This document shows positions 2,973-63,619 of a stretch of DNA of 64,000 bases, in pieces. The DNA comes from Microgenomates group bacterium. Its GTDB lineage: Bacteria; Patescibacteriota; Microgenomatia; UBA1400; MFAQ01. The stretch spans positions 11,264 through 75,263 of the forward strand of contig JBAQNH010000002.1 of NCBI GenBank assembly GCA_049303575.1. Reading direction: 5' to 3'. The notes beneath the pieces were generated by a model. The model was not told the DNA's origin. It saw only the letters and a program-made list of their open reading frames with translations, and did not search any database. Every line of letters begins with the position of its first letter. Position 1 is the first letter of the stretch. The position numbers were made by a program, and so were the translations under genes.

Positions 2973-3060
2973 TTAACAAGGACATATTTTACCATAAACA
3001 AACTTAAACAAGCACAAAAAGACTGGGTTTCCCCAGTCTTATAAACTTCTCCCATTCAAA

Positions 3061-3360
3061 CTAAATGCCGGAAAGCAAGGCCATCAAACCGACCATCAAT
3101 ATTACAAGTGCAAAAAGGGCCGTTGTATAACCCAACATCTTCACACAGCCCAACCAAAAAGGACCATCAGTAAACAGAAGGTTCAGACAAAATGGTAGCG
3201 CCAGGTAGGACACAGAGAACAAACCAATTGCCAACGGTAAATTGTTTACTTCCGTCCCCGTGGCAAACATACTTCCCAGACTTACAATAACAAGCGCTAG
3301 GATGACACAAACTGGTATTATCACGAACAACTTCAACCACTCAGGCATCGTTTCCTCCAA
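3061..3360 (-). CDS. Small hydrophobic membrane protein (99 aa, ~3 TM)
   Basis: ORF between 16S 3' end and tRNA-Ile on same strand; strongly hydrophobic segments (FVIIPVCVILALVIVSLG..., LFALVILMVGLMALLSGI). Confidence 0.4.
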   Translation of the reverse strand: MEETMPEWLKLFVIIPVCVILALVIVSLGSMFATGTEVNNLPLAIGLFSVSYLALPFCLNLLFTDGPFWLGCVKMLGYTTALFALVILMVGLMALLSGI

Positions 3361-3440
3361 TCAAAATTTCAAACTACAAACCAACCAATAGCAGCATTAT
3401 ACCATTAATATAGGCCTAAGTCAACCTTTTCCTAGCAAAA

Positions 3441-3470
3441 AACGCCACCAAAAACCCGCCTTACGCGGGT
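3441..3470 (-). terminator. Hairpin (CCCGC-loop-GCGGG) followed by U-run on minus strand; terminator or processing stem downstream of 16S
   Basis: plus-strand aaaaacgccaccaaaaaCCCGCcttacGCGGGt; reverse complement gives stem + UUUUU. Confidence 0.3.
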
Positions 3471-3650
3471 CTTCCGTGCTCAAAGTGAAGCAGACTATTT
3501 TATCAACTGAAAAGCGGCAAAGAGTCAAGGTTAGATTTGTTTAGACACTCTCCAACCAATAGTGTGGCGATATTATCATCGGACTCGTGAAGTCCTTAAC
3601 TCCTAGAAAGGAGGTGATCCATCCGCACCTTCCAGTACGGATACCTTGTT

Positions 3651-3890
3651 CATGTTAATCCAACGTATTTCTACGGGCATGGACTATATCTTCATCCTTT
3701 TTCTAATATAAAAAAGGAGCTCGCGTGTAGTCTCTACGGAGTCCCTTTCCCGATGTCTCGGAATTGGGTTCCCTCGGTATTACCATATATCCAGCACACT
3801 CAAAAGTATACCGAATAGTTAGGCTTCACCGATACAGCAAGATTTTTAATAGAAATTACTCTCTATAGTCGCAACGTGCAGTATGCACAA
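3651..3890 (-). other. Group I intron, ORF-less (240 nt), inserted between GUCGU and AACAAGG near the 16S 3' end (equivalent to E. coli ~1506 site)
   Basis: Exon sequence GGGGCUAAGUCGU | AACAAGGUAUCCGUAC is split. The insert contains group I core elements (..CCGUAGAGACUA.. R-like, ..GAUAUAGUCC.. S-like), 5' exon ends in U and intron ends in G. Homologous to the other three rRNA introns and to 61616-61800. Confidence 0.7.
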
Positions 3891-3919
3891 ACGACTTAGC
3901 CCCCATCGCCAGTCTTACC

Positions 3920-4534
3920 TTAGGAGGCCCGATCCTTGCGGTTGCGGGTACCTACTTCGGGCACTACTGACTTTGTTGACTTGACGGGCAGTGTTCCGGG
4001 ATAACTATGCAGATCACTCTGCAAACTTCCCTCTCGCCGAGCACGCGGATTTCCCGCACCCTGGCGAATGCCTGATCTTGATGAATATTTATTCATCCGC
4101 TCTCTGATAACTCTTAATTGTTTAATTCCCTCGTGAGTAAGGTGTTTTTTCTCTTTAAATATCTCGCCAGCTTGGCAAAATAGTTCAAAAGAATACTTCT
4201 TTTTACCCAATAAAGGATATTGGTGGAAAAAAGGAATTATTTTTTCAAATATATCCTTCATTCCACTAATTTTCAGTTTTGCGTGTGGAGCCCATCCATA
4301 TCTTTCGTAGTTCAGGTCATAGACCTTTCCACAATTAAGATAAATGGCGATTGCTTCCAAAATCTCCCTGTCATCTCCCCTCAGCTCTATTTCAAAATTA
4401 AGCCTTGGATCAAGTCCAGTTTTAGTAGTTTTATGTCTACTAATTGATATCGAAAAACAACCTTCTCCATCTACAAAACCTGCAATATAGTCACCAGATA
4501 ACTTCATAATCAGGTTCGGTCCTTCCTCCGCCAT
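3920..4534 (-). CDS. LAGLIDADG homing endonuclease (single-motif type) encoded in 16S intron; ORF reads through into the downstream exon
   Basis: 204 aa; motif DYIAGFVDGEGCF near N-terminus. The ORF extends about 70 nt past the predicted 3' splice site. Confidence 0.7.
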   Translation of the reverse strand: MAEEGPNLIMKLSGDYIAGFVDGEGCFSISISRHKTTKTGLDPRLNFEIELRGDDREILEAIAIYLNCGKVYDLNYERYGWAPHAKLKISGMKDIFEKIIPFFHQYPLLGKKKYSFELFCQAGEIFKEKKHLTHEGIKQLRVIRERMNKYSSRSGIRQGAGNPRARREGSLQSDLHSYPGTLPVKSTKSVVPEVGTRNRKDRAS

Positions 4535-4898
4535 AGCGGAGTACTACGACCTCTGCAGACTTCTAATTTCTAATCGATAGGCGGTCACCCACTCTATCTA
4601 CTTTCATTAAACACGAAGTTTAACCGAAAGTCAAAACTAGATCTCCCTTCGTACTAATAGTTTCATTTTGTTTTCATCATGAGCCCAAATATTTTGTGTA
4701 ACTTTGTTTGTAAGTGTCTTCTCCATCTGTACGTAGGATCGACATTACACAAAACCGACTCGACTTCATGCTGAAAACTGCTACTTTAACCCTTCAGCAT
4801 TATCGTCACCGATTAATGCTTGTTATTTCGCTTCGCAATACTTACATTGCCGGAGGATTTTCACCTCCTAGAAAAAACTAGCGGAAGGCGCATATTAT
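3994..4898 (-). other. Group I intron with LAGLIDADG ORF, inserted in the 16S 1390-1400 region (UUGUACA | ..ACACUGCCCGUC); boundaries +/- 3 nt
   Basis: Conserved 16S sequence GAAUACGUUCUCGUUUCUUGUACA at 4899-4925 (rc) and ACACUGCCCGUCAAG at ~3975-3993 (rc) are separated by ~905 nt. Confidence 0.65.
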
Positions 4899-5201
4899 TT
4901 GTACAAGAAACGAGAACGTATTCACCGCGGTGTTGCTGATCCGCGATTACTATCAACTCCCTTTCATGCAGGCGAATTGCAGCCTGCAATCCAAACTGAG
5001 GATGGGTTTATAAGGATTAGCTCCGGCTCGCGCCTTGGCATCCCGTTGTCCCACCCATTACGCCATGTGTGTAGCCCTAGATATAAGCGCCATGCTGATT
5101 TGACGTCATCCCCTCCTTCCTCCTTGGAAAAATCCAAGGCAGTCTGCTATGGATATTTAACATAGCACAGGGGTTGCGTTCGTTACGGCACTTAAGCCGA
5201 C

Positions 5202-6065
5202 GCCTCCAAAAATATTTGAAAATTACTTCAAACGTAGACTATACCTTCACCCTTCGCTTTCGCGTTAGGGGCCGACGTGTTATGGAAATAGATTACTCTA
5301 CCCATCTTCATCCTGTCTAAACAGGAATCTAGTCGTTACGGGGTCAAGACCTTTATATTTCATACATTCTGGCATATATTTGAAGATTAAATTGAAAAAT
5401 TGATTTACCGAATTACTTCTAATTCTTAGTCTCTTTTTCTTTTCGTTCAACAAACAGTCCAATTTGAACTTATTTTTCAATAAAGAAATAACTTCGTTCA
5501 AATCTTCCAGTCGATAACTTTCGGTCGCTATTGTCGGATATTTATGCTTTTCAAAATGACCATCATCCATATACCAAACTGCCAAAGAAAGAGGGGTAAA
5601 CCACTTCTTTAGTGTCTGAATAGGAATGGTCTTCACACCATCAGGATAAAATAACCGTCTGAATTCTCGAAAATACTGTCTCAAAAAAAATCTTTTACTT
5701 TCTGAAACTACTCCGTTTCGTCTATCAAGACGTAAAACGGAAGCAATTTTTGGATAAGCTAATCTCTTTAATAAGCCGTATTTCCAATTCAAATAGCCAC
5801 TTTGTTTGTTTGATTGTTCAAAACAAATCTTTCCTAATGGGTAAACATAAGCATCTCCCAAAATGGAACCAATTATTATCGACAATTCATCATGCGAAAG
5901 AGATAAATGAATATTCCTTCGTATTAGAATTTGCCGAATGTCAGTCTGACTTCCCTCGGTATTACCCATTTGAATCCATTTAACCCGAAGTTAAACCGAA
6001 TGTCAACAGGGCTTCACCGATATGAGTCGGATTTCTCATTCCCGATTACTCGAGAAGGTCGCGAT
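5202..6065 (-). other. Group I intron with LAGLIDADG ORF, inserted in the 16S ~1075 region (GUGUCGUGAGCU | UCGGCUUAAGUGCCG); boundaries +/- 3 nt
   Basis: 16S blocks CUGCAUGGUUGUCGUCAGUUCGUGUCGUGAG (rc of 6066-6100) and GGCUUAAGUGCCGUAACGAACGCAACCC (rc of ~5170-5200) are separated by ~860 nt. The intron start shares the ..UAUCGGUGAAG.. and ..ACCGAGGGAAG.. blocks with the other introns. Confidence 0.65.
5298..5969 (-). CDS. LAGLIDADG homing endonuclease (double-motif) in 16S intron
   Basis: 223 aa; motifs LSIIIGSILGDAYV and LAVWYMDDGH. ORF start lies inside the conserved intron block ..GGUAAUACCGAGGGAAG... Confidence 0.75.
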   Translation of the reverse strand: MGNTEGSQTDIRQILIRRNIHLSLSHDELSIIIGSILGDAYVYPLGKICFEQSNKQSGYLNWKYGLLKRLAYPKIASVLRLDRRNGVVSESKRFFLRQYFREFRRLFYPDGVKTIPIQTLKKWFTPLSLAVWYMDDGHFEKHKYPTIATESYRLEDLNEVISLLKNKFKLDCLLNEKKKRLRIRSNSVNQFFNLIFKYMPECMKYKGLDPVTTRFLFRQDEDG

Positions 6066-6355
6066 AGCTCACGACACGAACTGACGACAACCATGCAGCA
6101 GCTGTGTAACACCCTCGAAGGAGTCCCTGTTTCCAGGGATTTGCAGTTACATGTCAAATCTAGGTAAGGTTCAAGGTTTCGTATCCAATTAAACCACATG
6201 GCACGCTGATTGTGCGTTTCCCCGTCAATTCCTTTGAGTTTTAACCTTGCGGTCGTACTCCCCAGGCGGAACACTTAACGCGTTAGCTTACGCCACTCCC
6301 CTTGCGGGAAATAGCTAGTGTTCATAGTTTACGGCTAGGACTACAGGGGTCTCTA

Positions 6356-7236
6356 CATAACTGTTACTTCTTCCACAAAAGTGGAATACTAACCTCGATT
6401 TTCATCAAGGCGGCTAATCGTTTCTGATTAACTCTGTACATTACTGCACAGATCGGACTGTATCATGCTCCGATTTTCATCGGAGTCCGGCGTACAGTCT
6501 CTACGGGGTTTTTCTCTATATGGAATAAATTTATATTCAAACTCAGGCAAGATATACTCGCCCAACTTACTTTTTAATTCGTGCAAAGTTCTAAAGGGAA
6601 AATAAATAATATATTTTCCTTTGTTAATTCGCTTCGATGCCTGAATCCCGATGTTTTTCTTAATGGCTTTGATAAGTAAACTTACCTCTGCTTCAGAAAA
6701 ACTGTGAGTTTGGATTGATAAACCGGCATATTCTGCCGAGCCATCATCCATAATCCAGACAGCAAGTACCAAAGGATCAATTGCAGATGCTATCAATGAG
6801 ATAACAACTTTCTTGTGGTTTTTATAAAACAACTGATAATAATGGGTAAAAATAGGATGAGTTAAAGTCACAAACTCGGCAAAGTTGTAGTCTTTTATGC
6901 CGACTTTCTGAGAAAACTTTCTTATTTTCATTGAAATAATTGGTTCAAAAATACGCCATTTGTAATTTACCAAACTTAGCTGTTTAAGGCTATGTTTAAT
7001 ATGCAAACGACAATTCTTTCCCCGAAATCTCAAACCACCATCACCCAACATTGTTCCAATCAAAACGCTCCTTTGAGTTTTAGTTAAACAAAATTCATTC
7101 TTTTTATAGTTAAAAACTTCCCTCGGTGTTTTCCTCACTTATTCAGTATACCCGAAAGTAAACCGAAACCACAAGGACTTTCACCGATATAGCCGATTCT
7201 TTAATTACGCATTACTACGTAATGGGACTAGTCAAA
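6356..7236 (-). other. Group I intron with LAGLIDADG ORF, inserted at 16S ~788 (GGGAU | UAGAGACCCCUGUAGUCC)
   Basis: Exon ...ACGAAAGCUAGGGGAGCGAAAGGGAU ends in U; P1 can form between exon GGGAU and intron GUCCC. The intron ends ...GUUAUG (G) before UAGAGACCCC. The R-like (CCGUAGAGACUGUACG) and S-like (GAUACAGUCCGA) elements are present at 6440-6500. Confidence 0.75.
6428..7138 (-). CDS. LAGLIDADG homing endonuclease (double-motif) in 16S intron; GTG start
   Basis: 236 aa; motifs SVLIGTMLGDGGL and LAVWIMDDGSAEYAGL; start codon GTG embedded in the conserved ..ACACCGAGGGAAG.. intron block. Confidence 0.75.
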   Translation of the reverse strand: MRKTPREVFNYKKNEFCLTKTQRSVLIGTMLGDGGLRFRGKNCRLHIKHSLKQLSLVNYKWRIFEPIISMKIRKFSQKVGIKDYNFAEFVTLTHPIFTHYYQLFYKNHKKVVISLIASAIDPLVLAVWIMDDGSAEYAGLSIQTHSFSEAEVSLLIKAIKKNIGIQASKRINKGKYIIYFPFRTLHELKSKLGEYILPEFEYKFIPYREKPRRDCTPDSDENRSMIQSDLCSNVQS

Positions 7237-7989
7237 ATCCCTTTCGCTCCCCTAGCTTTCGTTCATCAGCGTCTGGAATGTCCTAGTTACCTGCCTTCGC
7301 TTTTGGTATTCTTCTTGATATCAACAGATTTCACTCTTCCACCAAGAATTCTAGTAACCCCGAACATCCACAAGTCTATCAGTTTAACGGACATCTCCGG
7401 GGTTGAGCCCCGGGCTTTAACCCGTTACTTAATAGACCGCCTACGATACTCTTTACGCCCAATAAATCCGGATAATGCTTGCACTCTACGTATTACCGAG
7501 GCTTCTGGCACGTAGTTAGCAAGTGCTTTCTAATAGGGTACCATCAAAATTTTTTCCCCTATCACAGTAGTTTACGACCCGAGGGCCTTCATCCTACACG
7601 CAGTGTCACTGCATCAGACTTTCGTCCATTGTGCAAAATTCCCAGTTGCTGCCACCCGTAGGTGTATGTTCCGTGTCTAAGTAACATTGTGGGGGACCAC
7701 GCTCTCACGTCCCCTAGCCGTCATAGCCTTGGTGAGCCATTACCTCACCAACTAGCTGATAGCAAACAGGCCCATCTATCGTCGGCCGGTTAAGGCCTTT
7801 CATCTTGCGATCTTATGCGGTATTATCTCGCCTTTCGGCGAGCTATTCCCCAACAAAAGGTAGGTTCCTGTCAATCCTCACCCGTCTGCCACTGATTTGG
7901 CCTTGCGGCCTCCTCCGTTCGACTTGCATGCTTAAGGTACACTGCCAGCATTCATCCTGAACCAGGATCAAATTCTCAATTAAAATTGA

Positions 7990-60316: not shown

Positions 60317-61315
<999 letters not shown>

Positions 61316-61335
61316 TTAAGTTCTTACTACTAAAG

Positions 61336-61409
61336 TAGCTGGGGAGAGATTCGAACTCTCGGTCTCTTCTTTATGAATGAAGTGCTTTTACCAACTAAGC
61401 TACCCAGCC
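61336..61409 (-). tRNA. tRNA-Met (anticodon CAU), uninterrupted
   Basis: Reverse complement: GGCUGGG-UA-GCUU-AGUUGGUAA-AAGC-A-CUUCA-UUCAUAA-AGAAG-AGACC-GAGAG-UUCGAAU-CUCUC-CCCAGCU-A; G1.U72 wobble. Confidence 0.85.
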
Positions 61410-61538
61410 AGACTGCTATATTTTACCATCCTTTAGCCTCACAACATTCTAATCCTGAGATTAAACCTAGCATCAAGTAATTTAAATTTGTACTTCTTTT
61501 TACTCTAATACAATTCATTCACCCATATATTACCCGAA

Positions 61539-61567
61539 TTGTCAAACGTGCCCATTCGTGCTAGAAT
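61539..61567 (+). promoter_or_regulatory. Strong sigma70-like promoter (-35 TTGTCA, 17-nt spacer, -10 TAGAAT) driving a plus-strand non-coding transcript
   Basis: TTGTCAaacgtgcccattcgtgcTAGAAT; predicted start ~61574, 12 nt before the putative 5' exon. Confidence 0.55.
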
Positions 61568-61585
61568 ACGCTTGTTCGTTGATTT

Positions 61586-61841
61586 GCGGGTGGAAGGTGA
61601 GTATCTTGCGAGGCTCAAATGGGCCGTTCAATGAGTAATTGTTGAATAGAACTTGGCTATATCGGTGAAATCCTAGTAAGGGACAACGCCGAGGGAAGTC
61701 TCCGTCTATGACGGATGACCCCGTAGAGACTAAACGCCGAGCTCCTAGTTTACTAGGATGATGACATAGTCCGACACTCTGAGTAATTAGAGAAACTGTG
61801 CATAATCTCGCTTAACTGGGGAGCGTGACCCCAGACCCGCA
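61586..61841 (+). ncRNA. Putative intron-split tRNA-like gene (anticodon CAU after splicing): 5' exon 61586-61615, group I intron 61616-61800, 3' exon 61801-61841
   Basis: Exons fold as acceptor GCGGGUG/GACCCGC (6 of 7 bp) + discriminator A. The anticodon stem CGAGG/UCUCG closes the loop CU|CAUAA, which is reconstituted across the splice junction. T-stem is UGGGG/CCCCA. D-loop and T-loop are non-canonical (no G18G19, no T54-psi55-C56). 5' exon ends in U and intron ends in G; P1 is possible between exon GGCU and intron GGCC. Confidence 0.4.
61616..61800 (+). other. ORF-less group I intron (185 nt), fifth member of the 16S intron family, in plus orientation outside the rRNA gene
   Basis: Colinear with the reverse complement of the rRNA introns: GGCUAUAUCGGUGAAAUCC..., ...CGCCGAGGGAAG..., ...CCCCGUAGAGACUAAACGCCGAG... 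(R-like), ...GAUGACAUAGUCCGA... (S-like). Closest to the 3651-3890 ORF-less intron, with an about 40-nt deletion. Confidence 0.65.
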
Positions 61842-61844
61842 ACA

Positions 61845-62222
61845 CTATTTTAGAAGTGCCCACCACTTCTCCCAGTTTTCTACCTGTTTTTCTTCTTCTG
61901 TCGCCTCCTTTATAGTCAACTGGTCCCCTTTTGGTAGTACCGCCACCACTTCTCCAACTTTTTGCATATTTAGTTGTTCTCTGATTATTTTTTCCTTGTA
62001 TTCCTCGGTCATTACCAAACCAAGCTTATCCTTTAGCATTTGGTTCTTTGCTTCTTCCTCGACCAAACGAGTCTTAGCCTCATCTATTCGAACGTAACCC
62101 TTTCTTAACTGCCAAAGGTCTTTTGCCAAAGAAAAAATAAGTATCCAGGCAATAACTAAAATTATGCCTTTGATCCAGCCCTTTTTGTTTGTTTCCTTGT
62201 TTCCCCTGTTTAAAGCTTGCAT
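61845..62222 (-). CDS. FtsB/DivIC-like septum-formation initiator (single TM + coiled coil)
   Basis: 125 aa; N-terminal TM (IKGIILVIAWILIFSLA) followed by heptad-repeat region; family assignment by architecture only. Confidence 0.4.
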   Translation of the reverse strand: MQALNRGNKETNKKGWIKGIILVIAWILIFSLAKDLWQLRKGYVRIDEAKTRLVEEEAKNQMLKDKLGLVMTEEYKEKIIREQLNMQKVGEVVAVLPKGDQLTIKEATEEEKQVENWEKWWALLK

Positions 62223-63542: not shown

Positions 63543-63545
63543 TAG

Positions 63546-63619
63546 TGGGCCGACCAGGATTCGAACCTGGGACATCGAAGGTATAAGCTTCGCGCTCTAA
63601 CCAGCTGAGCTATCGGCCC
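63546..63619 (-). tRNA. tRNA-Ile with UAU anticodon (reads AUA)
   Basis: Reverse complement: GGGCCGA-UA-GCUC-AGCUGGUUA-GAGC-G-CGAAG-CUUAUAC-CUUCG-AUGUC-CCAGG-UUCGAAU-CCUGG-UCGGCCC-A; U33, anticodon U34-A35-U36, A37. Body closely resembles the tRNA-Ile(GAU) at 2899-2972. Confidence 0.75.

Follow-up and report, generated by a model that had tools for sequence, protein, structure and literature searches.

A 185-nt group I intron in the gene for a structurally divergent tRNA(CAU), most likely an initiator tRNA, of Collierbacteria-type Microgenomatia

One of the four classical classes of bacterial tRNA introns, fMet.2Ug, lies after the second anticodon-loop base of tRNA-fMet and has U at position -1 and G at omega (Williams, bioRxiv 10.1101/2020.01.27.920355). 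A survey of 95 complete Patescibacteria genomes (Nakagawa et al., mSystems 2026, PMC13011429) lists, in the part of its Table S3 available to us, two Microgenomatia tRNA-Met(CAU) genes that harbor a group I intron at 33/34, one in GCA_001029755.1 and one in GCA_013426185.1. Here we analyze a stretch of 64,000 nucleotides (nt), hereafter called the window, from a Microgenomates group bacterium (GenBank assembly GCA_049303575.1, contig JBAQNH010000002.1, positions 11,264 to 75,263 of the forward strand), and within it a split gene at 61585-61842. We conclude with considerable confidence that the gene is functional and encodes a tRNA(CAU) of divergent structure, most likely the initiator tRNA of Collierbacteria-type genomes, and that it carries a 185-nt group I intron.

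The intron is a further member of the published class, and the remodelled tRNA in which it resides looks unreported. Both published Microgenomatia introns align with the window intron over their full length, at 75% (GCA_001029755.1) and 67% (GCA_013426185.1) identity, with P1 to P9 in common. Their hosts are split at the same site, between GGCU and CAUAA, and have the same CUCAUAA loop and U1...A72 A73 acceptor end. In GCA_001029755.1 the whole anticodon arm (CGAGGCUCAUAAUCUCG) is as in the window, while GCA_013426185.1 keeps the loop and differs in three stem pairs. Since 33/34 introns in Microgenomatia Met(CAU) genes have been published, the present gene is not the first tRNA(CAU) gene of the Candidate Phyla Radiation (CPR) known to be interrupted by a group I intron, contrary to an initial annotation of this DNA, which had expected a CPR example to be new. 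The tRNA bodies, however, differ. The published hosts are 70 nt long and predicted to be canonical, with GG in the D loop, the T loop UUCRAYY, and a T stem of 5 base pairs (bp), whereas the window host has 73 nt and combines the D loop GAGU and the T loop AGCGUGA with a T stem of 6 bp. No entry of the 73-nt form was seen in the available part of the published intron list, which is drawn from complete genomes only.

The window intron contains no open reading frame (ORF). A very compact ribozyme is known from the pre-tRNA-Ile(CAU) of Azoarcus, with GNRA tetraloops on P2 and P9 and no P5abc extension. The intron described here is like it in being compact, in interrupting a CAU tRNA, in its GNRA loops on P2 and P9, and in lacking P5abc. 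The Azoarcus intron, however, lies at 36/37, after the anticodon, and has about 205 nt compared to 185 nt at 33/34 here; the likeness lies in the features named. By eye, the two GNRA loops and the missing P5abc resemble subgroup IC3. We nevertheless do not call the intron IC3 despite its Azoarcus-like look, because no Patescibacteria tRNA intron was assigned to subgroup IC in the survey (PMC13011429). The fMet.2Ug introns of cyanobacteria and other bacteria share the site 33/34, the U at -1, the omega G, the small size, and the usual lack of an ORF with the window intron, but they have been assigned to IC3, while the Patescibacteria tRNA introns stand outside IC (PMC13011429).

The split gene and its control region are composed of the following features:

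61539-61567, forward strand: sigma-70-type promoter, with the -35 box TTGTCA at 61539-61544, a 17-nt spacer, and the extended -10 box TGcTAGAAT at 61559-61567
61568-61584, forward strand: predicted 5' leader, expected to be removed by RNase P
61585-61615, forward strand: exon 1, 31 nt, with U1 and the acceptor 5' strand at 61585-61591, then G8 and G9, and with C32 and U33 at its end
61594-61607, forward strand: D arm in exon 1, AAGGU-GAGU-AUCUU
61608-61613, forward strand: 5' strand of the anticodon stem in exon 1, GCGAGG
61616-61800, forward strand: group I intron, 185 nt, matched by RF00028 and with its elements read from the sequence
61801-61842, forward strand: exon 2, 42 nt, with C34, A35, U36, A37, and A38 at 61801-61805, followed by the 3' strand of the anticodon stem, UCUCGC, and the variable bases UUAA
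61816-61834, forward strand: T arm in exon 2, CUGGGG-AGCGUGA-CCCCAG
61835-61841, forward strand: acceptor 3' strand in exon 2, ACCCGCA, followed by the discriminator A73 at 61842 and C74 at 61843

The promoter TTGTCA-17-TAGAAT lies at 61539-61567, as had been proposed. A promoter scan gave 10 of 12 consensus matches, with a TG ahead of the -10 box TAGAAT (61562-61567), and no other promoter-like site within 61300-62000. Alignment of upstream regions placed a TGnTAnAAT box at an equal distance in nearly all orthologues. Past the -10 box and ahead of the 5' end of the tRNA, the motif TGTTCG (61573-61578, forward strand) is kept in most orthologues, the remaining leader being variable. The CCA end is incompletely encoded in the window gene, which has C74 only; some orthologues encode CCA.

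The exon segments recognized in the initial annotation, 61586-61615 and 61801-61841, each have a unique match in the window. Relatives whose tryptophanyl-tRNA synthetase (TrpRS) is 78 to 97% identical to that of the window harbor an uninterrupted sequence between divIC and the tRNA-Met gene. In L001-L003 and L007 this 71-nt sequence is exactly exon 1 plus exon 2, and the intronless orthologue L025 has it likewise. As these orthologues are identical to the joined exons, the splice junction between GGCU and CAUAA is confirmed by comparison, and with it the earlier proposal that the CAU loop is completed only across the junction, between loop positions 2 and 3. An exon-1 pattern that did not require the T at 61585 was then run against a single genome of each GTDB species. 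The gene was found in 27 GTDB species, and those with informative names are Candidatus (Ca.) Collierbacteria. It is uninterrupted in 22 of them and interrupted in the other 5, always at the same point after GGCU. Three of the five (L029, L030, and L037) have a window-type intron of 185 to 186 nt, 93 to 98% identical to that of the window, and the remaining two, L019 (196 nt) and L031 (202 nt), have a second type, type B, of about 75% identity. A single intron at a single site can thus be followed as a family-wide pattern of presence and absence (5/27 species, two sequence types). Both type B introns end in ...CUGUAUA before the CAUAA of exon 2, which places A instead of G at the omega position; judged by this A, not every intron copy looks splice-competent. 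Between L019 and L031, compensatory changes are found in P5, P6, and P8, as if these introns were still constrained.

The 185-nt intron at 61616-61800, already recognized as group I, is matched by RF00028 over 61606-61793, where positions 1-253 of the model align with 69.5 bits (E=1.4e-15), above the gathering score of 50. We assigned its elements, all on the forward strand, as follows:

P1: GGCU of exon 1 and the following C, with the internal guide GGGCC at 61621-61625, including the wobble U61615-G61622
P2: 61627-61646, with a GUAA loop
P3: 61652-61657 with 61736-61741
P4: 61662-61667 with 61687-61692
P5: 61671-61683
P6/P6a: 61693-61722
P7: 61726-61731 with 61768-61772, A61727 being bulged; a pseudoknot assigned by inspection only
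P8: 61743-61758
P9: 61777-61792, with a GUAA loop
Omega G: 61800
P10: 3 bp between CAU of exon 2 (61801-61803) and AUG at 61619-61621, read from the sequence

RNAalifold, applied to seven homologous introns including the two published Microgenomatia Met(CAU) introns at 33/34, recovered P1, P2, P3, P4, P5, P6, P8, and P9 and did not recover the P7 pseudoknot. Compensatory double changes were found at 21 of its 50 pairs, in P2, P3, P4, P5, P6, P8, and P9. The U-G pair at the splice site (U61615-G61622) is invariant in all seven introns. This wobble and the omega G at 61800 bear out the splice-site rules as first proposed, and the 3-bp P10 was found in addition. We also considered whether the intron is a copy of the ribosomal RNA (rRNA) introns in the window and rejected this: only short core blocks (26 nt at 92% and 14 nt at 100%) are common to it and the 16S rRNA introns, which are therefore related to it only as group I introns.

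When folded to minimum free energy, the spliced sequence forms a cloverleaf. In 30 distinct 73-nt versions from Collierbacteria and relatives, every one of the 720 cells pairs in the 24-pair, four-arm cloverleaf, and 9 of the 24 pairs, spread over all four helices, have changed on both sides. The covariation score was 0.287, compared to 0.137 for shuffles and 0.045 to 0.092 for slid registers, and the outcome was equal in a set of 18 sequences. T61585 is invariant in 38 of 38 genes and pairs with the invariant A61841; the acceptor stem is therefore fully paired (7/7, with U1:A72), and A61842 is the discriminator. The initial annotation had correctly seen a 7-bp stem and a discriminator A, but its register of six pairs out of seven with a G-G mismatch is off by one base. 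The stem comprises U1-G7 and A66-A72, with a weak U1:A72, and is followed by two unpaired G. The D stem has 5 bp and a 4-nt loop; a canonical stem of 4 bp and a loop of 6 nt is an equally good reading. The anticodon stem has 6 bp, the canonical 5 plus G26:C44, and is followed by the four variable bases. The T stem likewise has 6 bp (CUGGGG/CCCCAG) with the 7-nt loop AGCGUGA, and its pairs 47:65 and 52:60 have changed with pairing kept. Both of these stems had been recognized before, each with one pair fewer. Invariant are also the 7-nt anticodon loop CUCAUAA, with U33 and a purine at 37, A73, and C74. The host thus appears to be a real tRNA and, judged by the searchable literature, one whose structural form has not been described before.

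The odd D and T loops were placed in context by a metagenome scan whose pattern fixed only TGCGGG and the anticodon arm, which yielded at least 120 loci and at least 69 distinct sequences. Among the matches listed, the following groups were found:

Canonical group: 70 nt, D loop ACGGYU, T loop UUCRAYY
A18 variant group: 70 nt, D loop ANAGUY, T loop YGCRAYU
Intermediate group: 72 nt, D loop UUAGGUA with T loop UUCGAUU, or UUUAGAA with UGCGAGU
Form of the window gene: 73 nt, D loop RAGU, T loop RGCGKRR

Altogether, 76 distinct tRNAs beginning with U1 (U1-type) were parsed, and 74 of them had assignable loops. Positions 18 and 55 were A:G in 43, G:U in 29, and G:C in 2 of the 74 and never A:U or G:G, and the switch was seen inside each of the 70-nt, 72-nt, and 73-nt scaffolds. 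G19:C56 was present in 73 of the 74. This joint switch of 18:55 along with the kept G19:C56 indicates a conserved tertiary contact and hence an L-shaped tRNA. The window gene has other bases in place of the canonical G18, T54, and psi55, as first noted, and the contact is A18:G55; G19 and C56, which had been thought missing, are both present. The expectation that the D-loop and T-loop oddities go together was borne out, 18 and 55 switching jointly between G:U and A:G. A literature search for an A18:G55 contact in tRNA returned nothing relevant. The family thus represents a natural series from canonical to remodelled, in which A18:G55 took the place of G18:psi55 on at least three occasions and the T stem became longer. 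Probably, an initiator-type tRNA was remodelled from the canonical 70-nt form in this slot into the 73-nt form.

One 73-nt sequence in the series (L074, 680-752) has the D loop AGGU paired with the T loop AUCGAAA. This T loop has A54 and A60, as does the window loop AGCGUGA, and the same letters make up the T loop in initiator tRNAs of the eukaryotic cytoplasm.

Two other unusual tRNAs invite comparison. tRNASec has a 13-bp acceptor and T stack, and tRNAPyl has a 6-bp anticodon stem and neither G18 nor the T-psi-C motif. The window tRNA resembles both in shape only, through a D stem that is lengthened and bears a small loop of 4 nt; it is like tRNASec in its 13-bp acceptor and T stack, provided that U1:A72 pairs, and like tRNAPyl in its 6-bp anticodon stem and its lack of G18 and T-psi-C. 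Unlike either, it has the anticodon CAU, no long variable arm, no link to SelB or PylRS, and a stack divided 7/6 and not 8/5 or 9/4. An identity as tmRNA, tRNASec, or tRNAPyl was rejected on the basis of the CAU anticodon, the absence of a long variable arm, and orthology to a canonical tRNA(CAU).

This orthology is positional. In metagenomic Microgenomatia loci, among the matches listed, the canonical and the A18 70-nt forms occupy the same slot as the 73-nt form, flanked on one side by XerC and DivIC and on the other by a second CAU tRNA, TrpRS, a tRNA-binding protein, and FtsH. The 70-nt tRNA(CAU) and the 73-nt gene have the sequence of the acceptor stem, anticodon arm, and T stem in common. 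The check on related genomes thus found the flanks of the intron conserved at the same slot and belonging to the same RNA. In most loci, no more than about 1 kb separates the second CAU tRNA from the U1-type gene. It has a standard D arm and begins with GGC.GGGUAGCUCAG, a start that, by comparison with E. coli metT, we take to be the elongator tRNA-Met pattern. The U1-type genes have the acceptor end UGCGGGK...MCCCGCA-A, in which G2:C71, C3:G70, and A73 are invariant. In E. coli tRNAfMet, the acceptor end is CGCGGGG...CCCCGCA-A. The window tRNA is like it in GCGGGG...CCCCGC-A-A, G2:C71, C3:G70, A73, and the loop CUCAUAA and unlike it in U1:A72 instead of C1-A72, the G31-U39 wobble, an anticodon stem with only one or two G:C pairs, the lack of G18, T54, and psi55, and the 6-bp T stem.

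If the tRNA is functional, it is likely the initiator, on the basis of its acceptor end, A73, the CUCAUAA loop, the intron site, and the companion gene. Several observations weigh against this assignment. U1:A72 is a weak pair and not the C-A mismatch of bacterial initiators. The three G:C pairs of the anticodon stem are also absent: the window gene has A29:U41, G30:C40, and G31-U39, and other variants have G29:C41, G30:C40, and G31-U39, that is, only one or two G:C pairs and a G-U beside the loop. In addition, the canonical homologues are labelled "Met" and not "fMet" in the survey (PMC13011429). The same observations favor a functional tRNA(CAU) that is an elongator tRNA-Met or a lysidine-modified tRNA-Ile2, as does U11:A24 in the canonical 70-nt form, which is an elongator-type arrangement. 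Such a role is nevertheless improbable. In most loci the gene has beside it another tRNA-Met, which is of elongator type and has a standard D arm, and a tRNA-Ile2 is not needed because a tRNA-Ile(UAU) for AUA codons is encoded nearby. The acceptor end, moreover, matches that of bacterial initiators. Finally, most complete Microgenomatia genomes have two "Met" (CAU) and two "Ile" tRNAs by ARAGORN (PMC13011429 Table S2), and one of the two CAU tRNAs must initiate. These counts fit one initiator, one elongator, and one UAU tRNA for AUA codons.

The outcome with tRNA models speaks against a functional tRNA. RF00028 matches the intron, but RF00005 finds nothing in the intronless orthologues, whether with E<=5 or, when 131 nt are searched, with E<=10, and ARAGORN makes no call on the spliced sequence by default, reporting tRNA-Met(cat) only with a lowered threshold (-ps) or in mitochondrial mode (-mt). 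This lack of matches would fit a conserved tRNA-like RNA that acts outside translation, as a decoy, primer, or regulator, with the true initiator encoded elsewhere; the loss of T54 and psi55 and the 6-bp T stem could also disturb factors that measure the acceptor/T helix. We consider such an RNA very improbable, since it would be the positional orthologue of a canonical tRNA(CAU), with an invariant anticodon loop, A73, acceptor stem, and C74 and with elbow contacts that covary as in a true L-shaped tRNA, and since a second U1-type gene was not seen in about 80 Collierbacteria-type loci among the matches listed, which are loci and not whole genomes. No Rfam family of any kind matches the intronless orthologues at the same thresholds (E<=5; E<=10 in 131 nt), and the gene is therefore not another known small RNA. 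Still less probable, to the point of being scarcely credible, is a decaying pseudo-tRNA that serves as a mere landing site for the intron, as the initial annotation had considered, or its variant of a dead intron in an inactive gene copy. The noncanonical D and T loops and the A before exon 2 in the type B introns would be in line with decay. Conservation, covariation, and positional orthology contradict it, however: the exons are identical to the intronless orthologues, all 24 cloverleaf pairs are kept in the 30 variants with compensatory changes, the promoter is conserved, the intron helices covary, and the window copy has the U(-1)-G pair, the omega G, and P10.

Returning to the initiator assignment, we lean slightly towards the broader view that one noncanonical initiator tRNA, missed by every standard detector, serves for all translation starts in Collierbacteria and the lineages nearest to them. 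Three complete Microgenomatia genomes have a single CAU tRNA by ARAGORN and no reported Met intron (PMC13011429 Table S2). Together with the loci described above, these genomes are suggestive of a sole initiator. One of the three, GCF_009936135.1, is presumably that of Ca. Chazhemtobacterium aquaticus. This organism is sister to Collierbacteria, within the order UBA1400 (PMC7143001). Against this view it must be said that the sole-copy status is inferred from the fetched loci only.

If this view is true, the only initiator of these bacteria combines an acceptor/T helix divided 7/6 with a D loop of 4 nt and A18:G55 and has neither T54 nor psi55, and in some species, including this one, a ribozyme must first repair the sole initiator gene. 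Standard detectors would miss the initiator, and the genomes would therefore be annotated as being without one. Among the matches listed, default ARAGORN misses about 43 of 45 of the 73-nt forms in metagenomic loci and detects the 70-nt forms. Genomes of this lineage will thus seem short of one of two CAU tRNAs, nearly all 73-nt forms being missed by default ARAGORN and Rfam. The relevance lies in annotation and in work on tRNA structure and function, and not in a new kind of system; the series lends itself to testing which features of an initiator are required by RNase P, the CCA-adding enzyme, methionyl-tRNA synthetase (MetRS), the formyltransferase, and the ribosome.

Self-splicing in vivo, charging with methionine, formylation, and use as an initiator are predictions from sequence, and we propose the following course. 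The gene would be transcribed from its own extended -10 promoter, starting a few bases past the -10 box, into a precursor of roughly 270 nt. The intron between U33 and C34 would fold into P1 to P9, and an external guanosine would attack after U61615, which the U-G wobble holds within P1. This site would next be taken by the omega G (61800), with P10 (CAU with AUG) aligning exon 2, and exon ligation, the second of two guanosine-dependent transesterifications, would restore the loop CUCAUAA. A cut by RNase P at U1, 3' trimming, and CCA addition would give a 73-nt body plus CCA, of which MetRS would recognize CAU and A73. More speculatively, the 13-bp acceptor/T stack formed by the 6-bp T stem and a paired U1:A72 might keep the tRNA off EF-Tu.

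The companion gene of the window is a canonical tRNA:

61335-61409, reverse strand: tRNA-Met(CAU) of elongator type (GGCUGGGUAGCUUAGUUGGU...), found by ARAGORN and by RF00005 (68.9 bits)

By default, ARAGORN reports three canonical tRNAs only in the window, including this tRNA-Met(CAU) and a tRNA-Ile(UAU) at 63545-63619. The order of the locus is XerC-like recombinase, DivIC-like protein, split gene, tRNA-Met, TrpRS, tRNA-binding protein, and FtsH, and it is identical in every relative fetched. The tRNA-Ile(UAU) (63545-63619, reverse strand), whose anticodon is rare in bacteria, lies about 1.3 to 2 kb from the split gene across Microgenomatia and is also found in L001, L004, L005, L008, and L010 and in several metagenomic loci. 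This suggests that AUA is decoded without a lysidine-modified tRNA-Ile2, and the UAU tRNA fits the published ARAGORN counts of two Ile and two Met tRNAs.

A protein search placed Ca. Collierbacteria among the relatives of the window TrpRS (60317-61315, reverse strand). In the metagenomic loci L038-L157, versions of this enzyme are 30 to 45%, about 68%, or more than 75% identical to that of the window. Among representatives at 50% clustering, the nearest are at most 58% identical to it, and the best of these, P0121, comes from a Paceibacteria or Wolfebacteria neighborhood and not from Microgenomatia. That the window enzyme is nearest to Paceibacteria-like sequences at this clustering level suggests in-place replacement of the synthetase gene.

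The 16S rRNA gene of the window (about 3000-7983, reverse strand) is broken by several insertions. These insertions contain three LAGLIDADG endonuclease ORFs, at 3920-4534, 5298-5969, and 6428-7138. RF00028 gives one match in this gene at 3661-3899 and a weak one at 6434-6622, and a further group I-like core near 7116-7213 is hinted at by BLAST. In addition, RF01998, which represents group II intron domains D1-D4, matches 4519-4599 on the reverse strand with 51.8 bits against a gathering score of 35, abutting a LAGLIDADG_1 ORF within the 3' part of the 16S gene. Because no group II introns are reported in complete Patescibacteria genomes (Nakagawa et al. 2026, PMC13011429), this match may merit attention.

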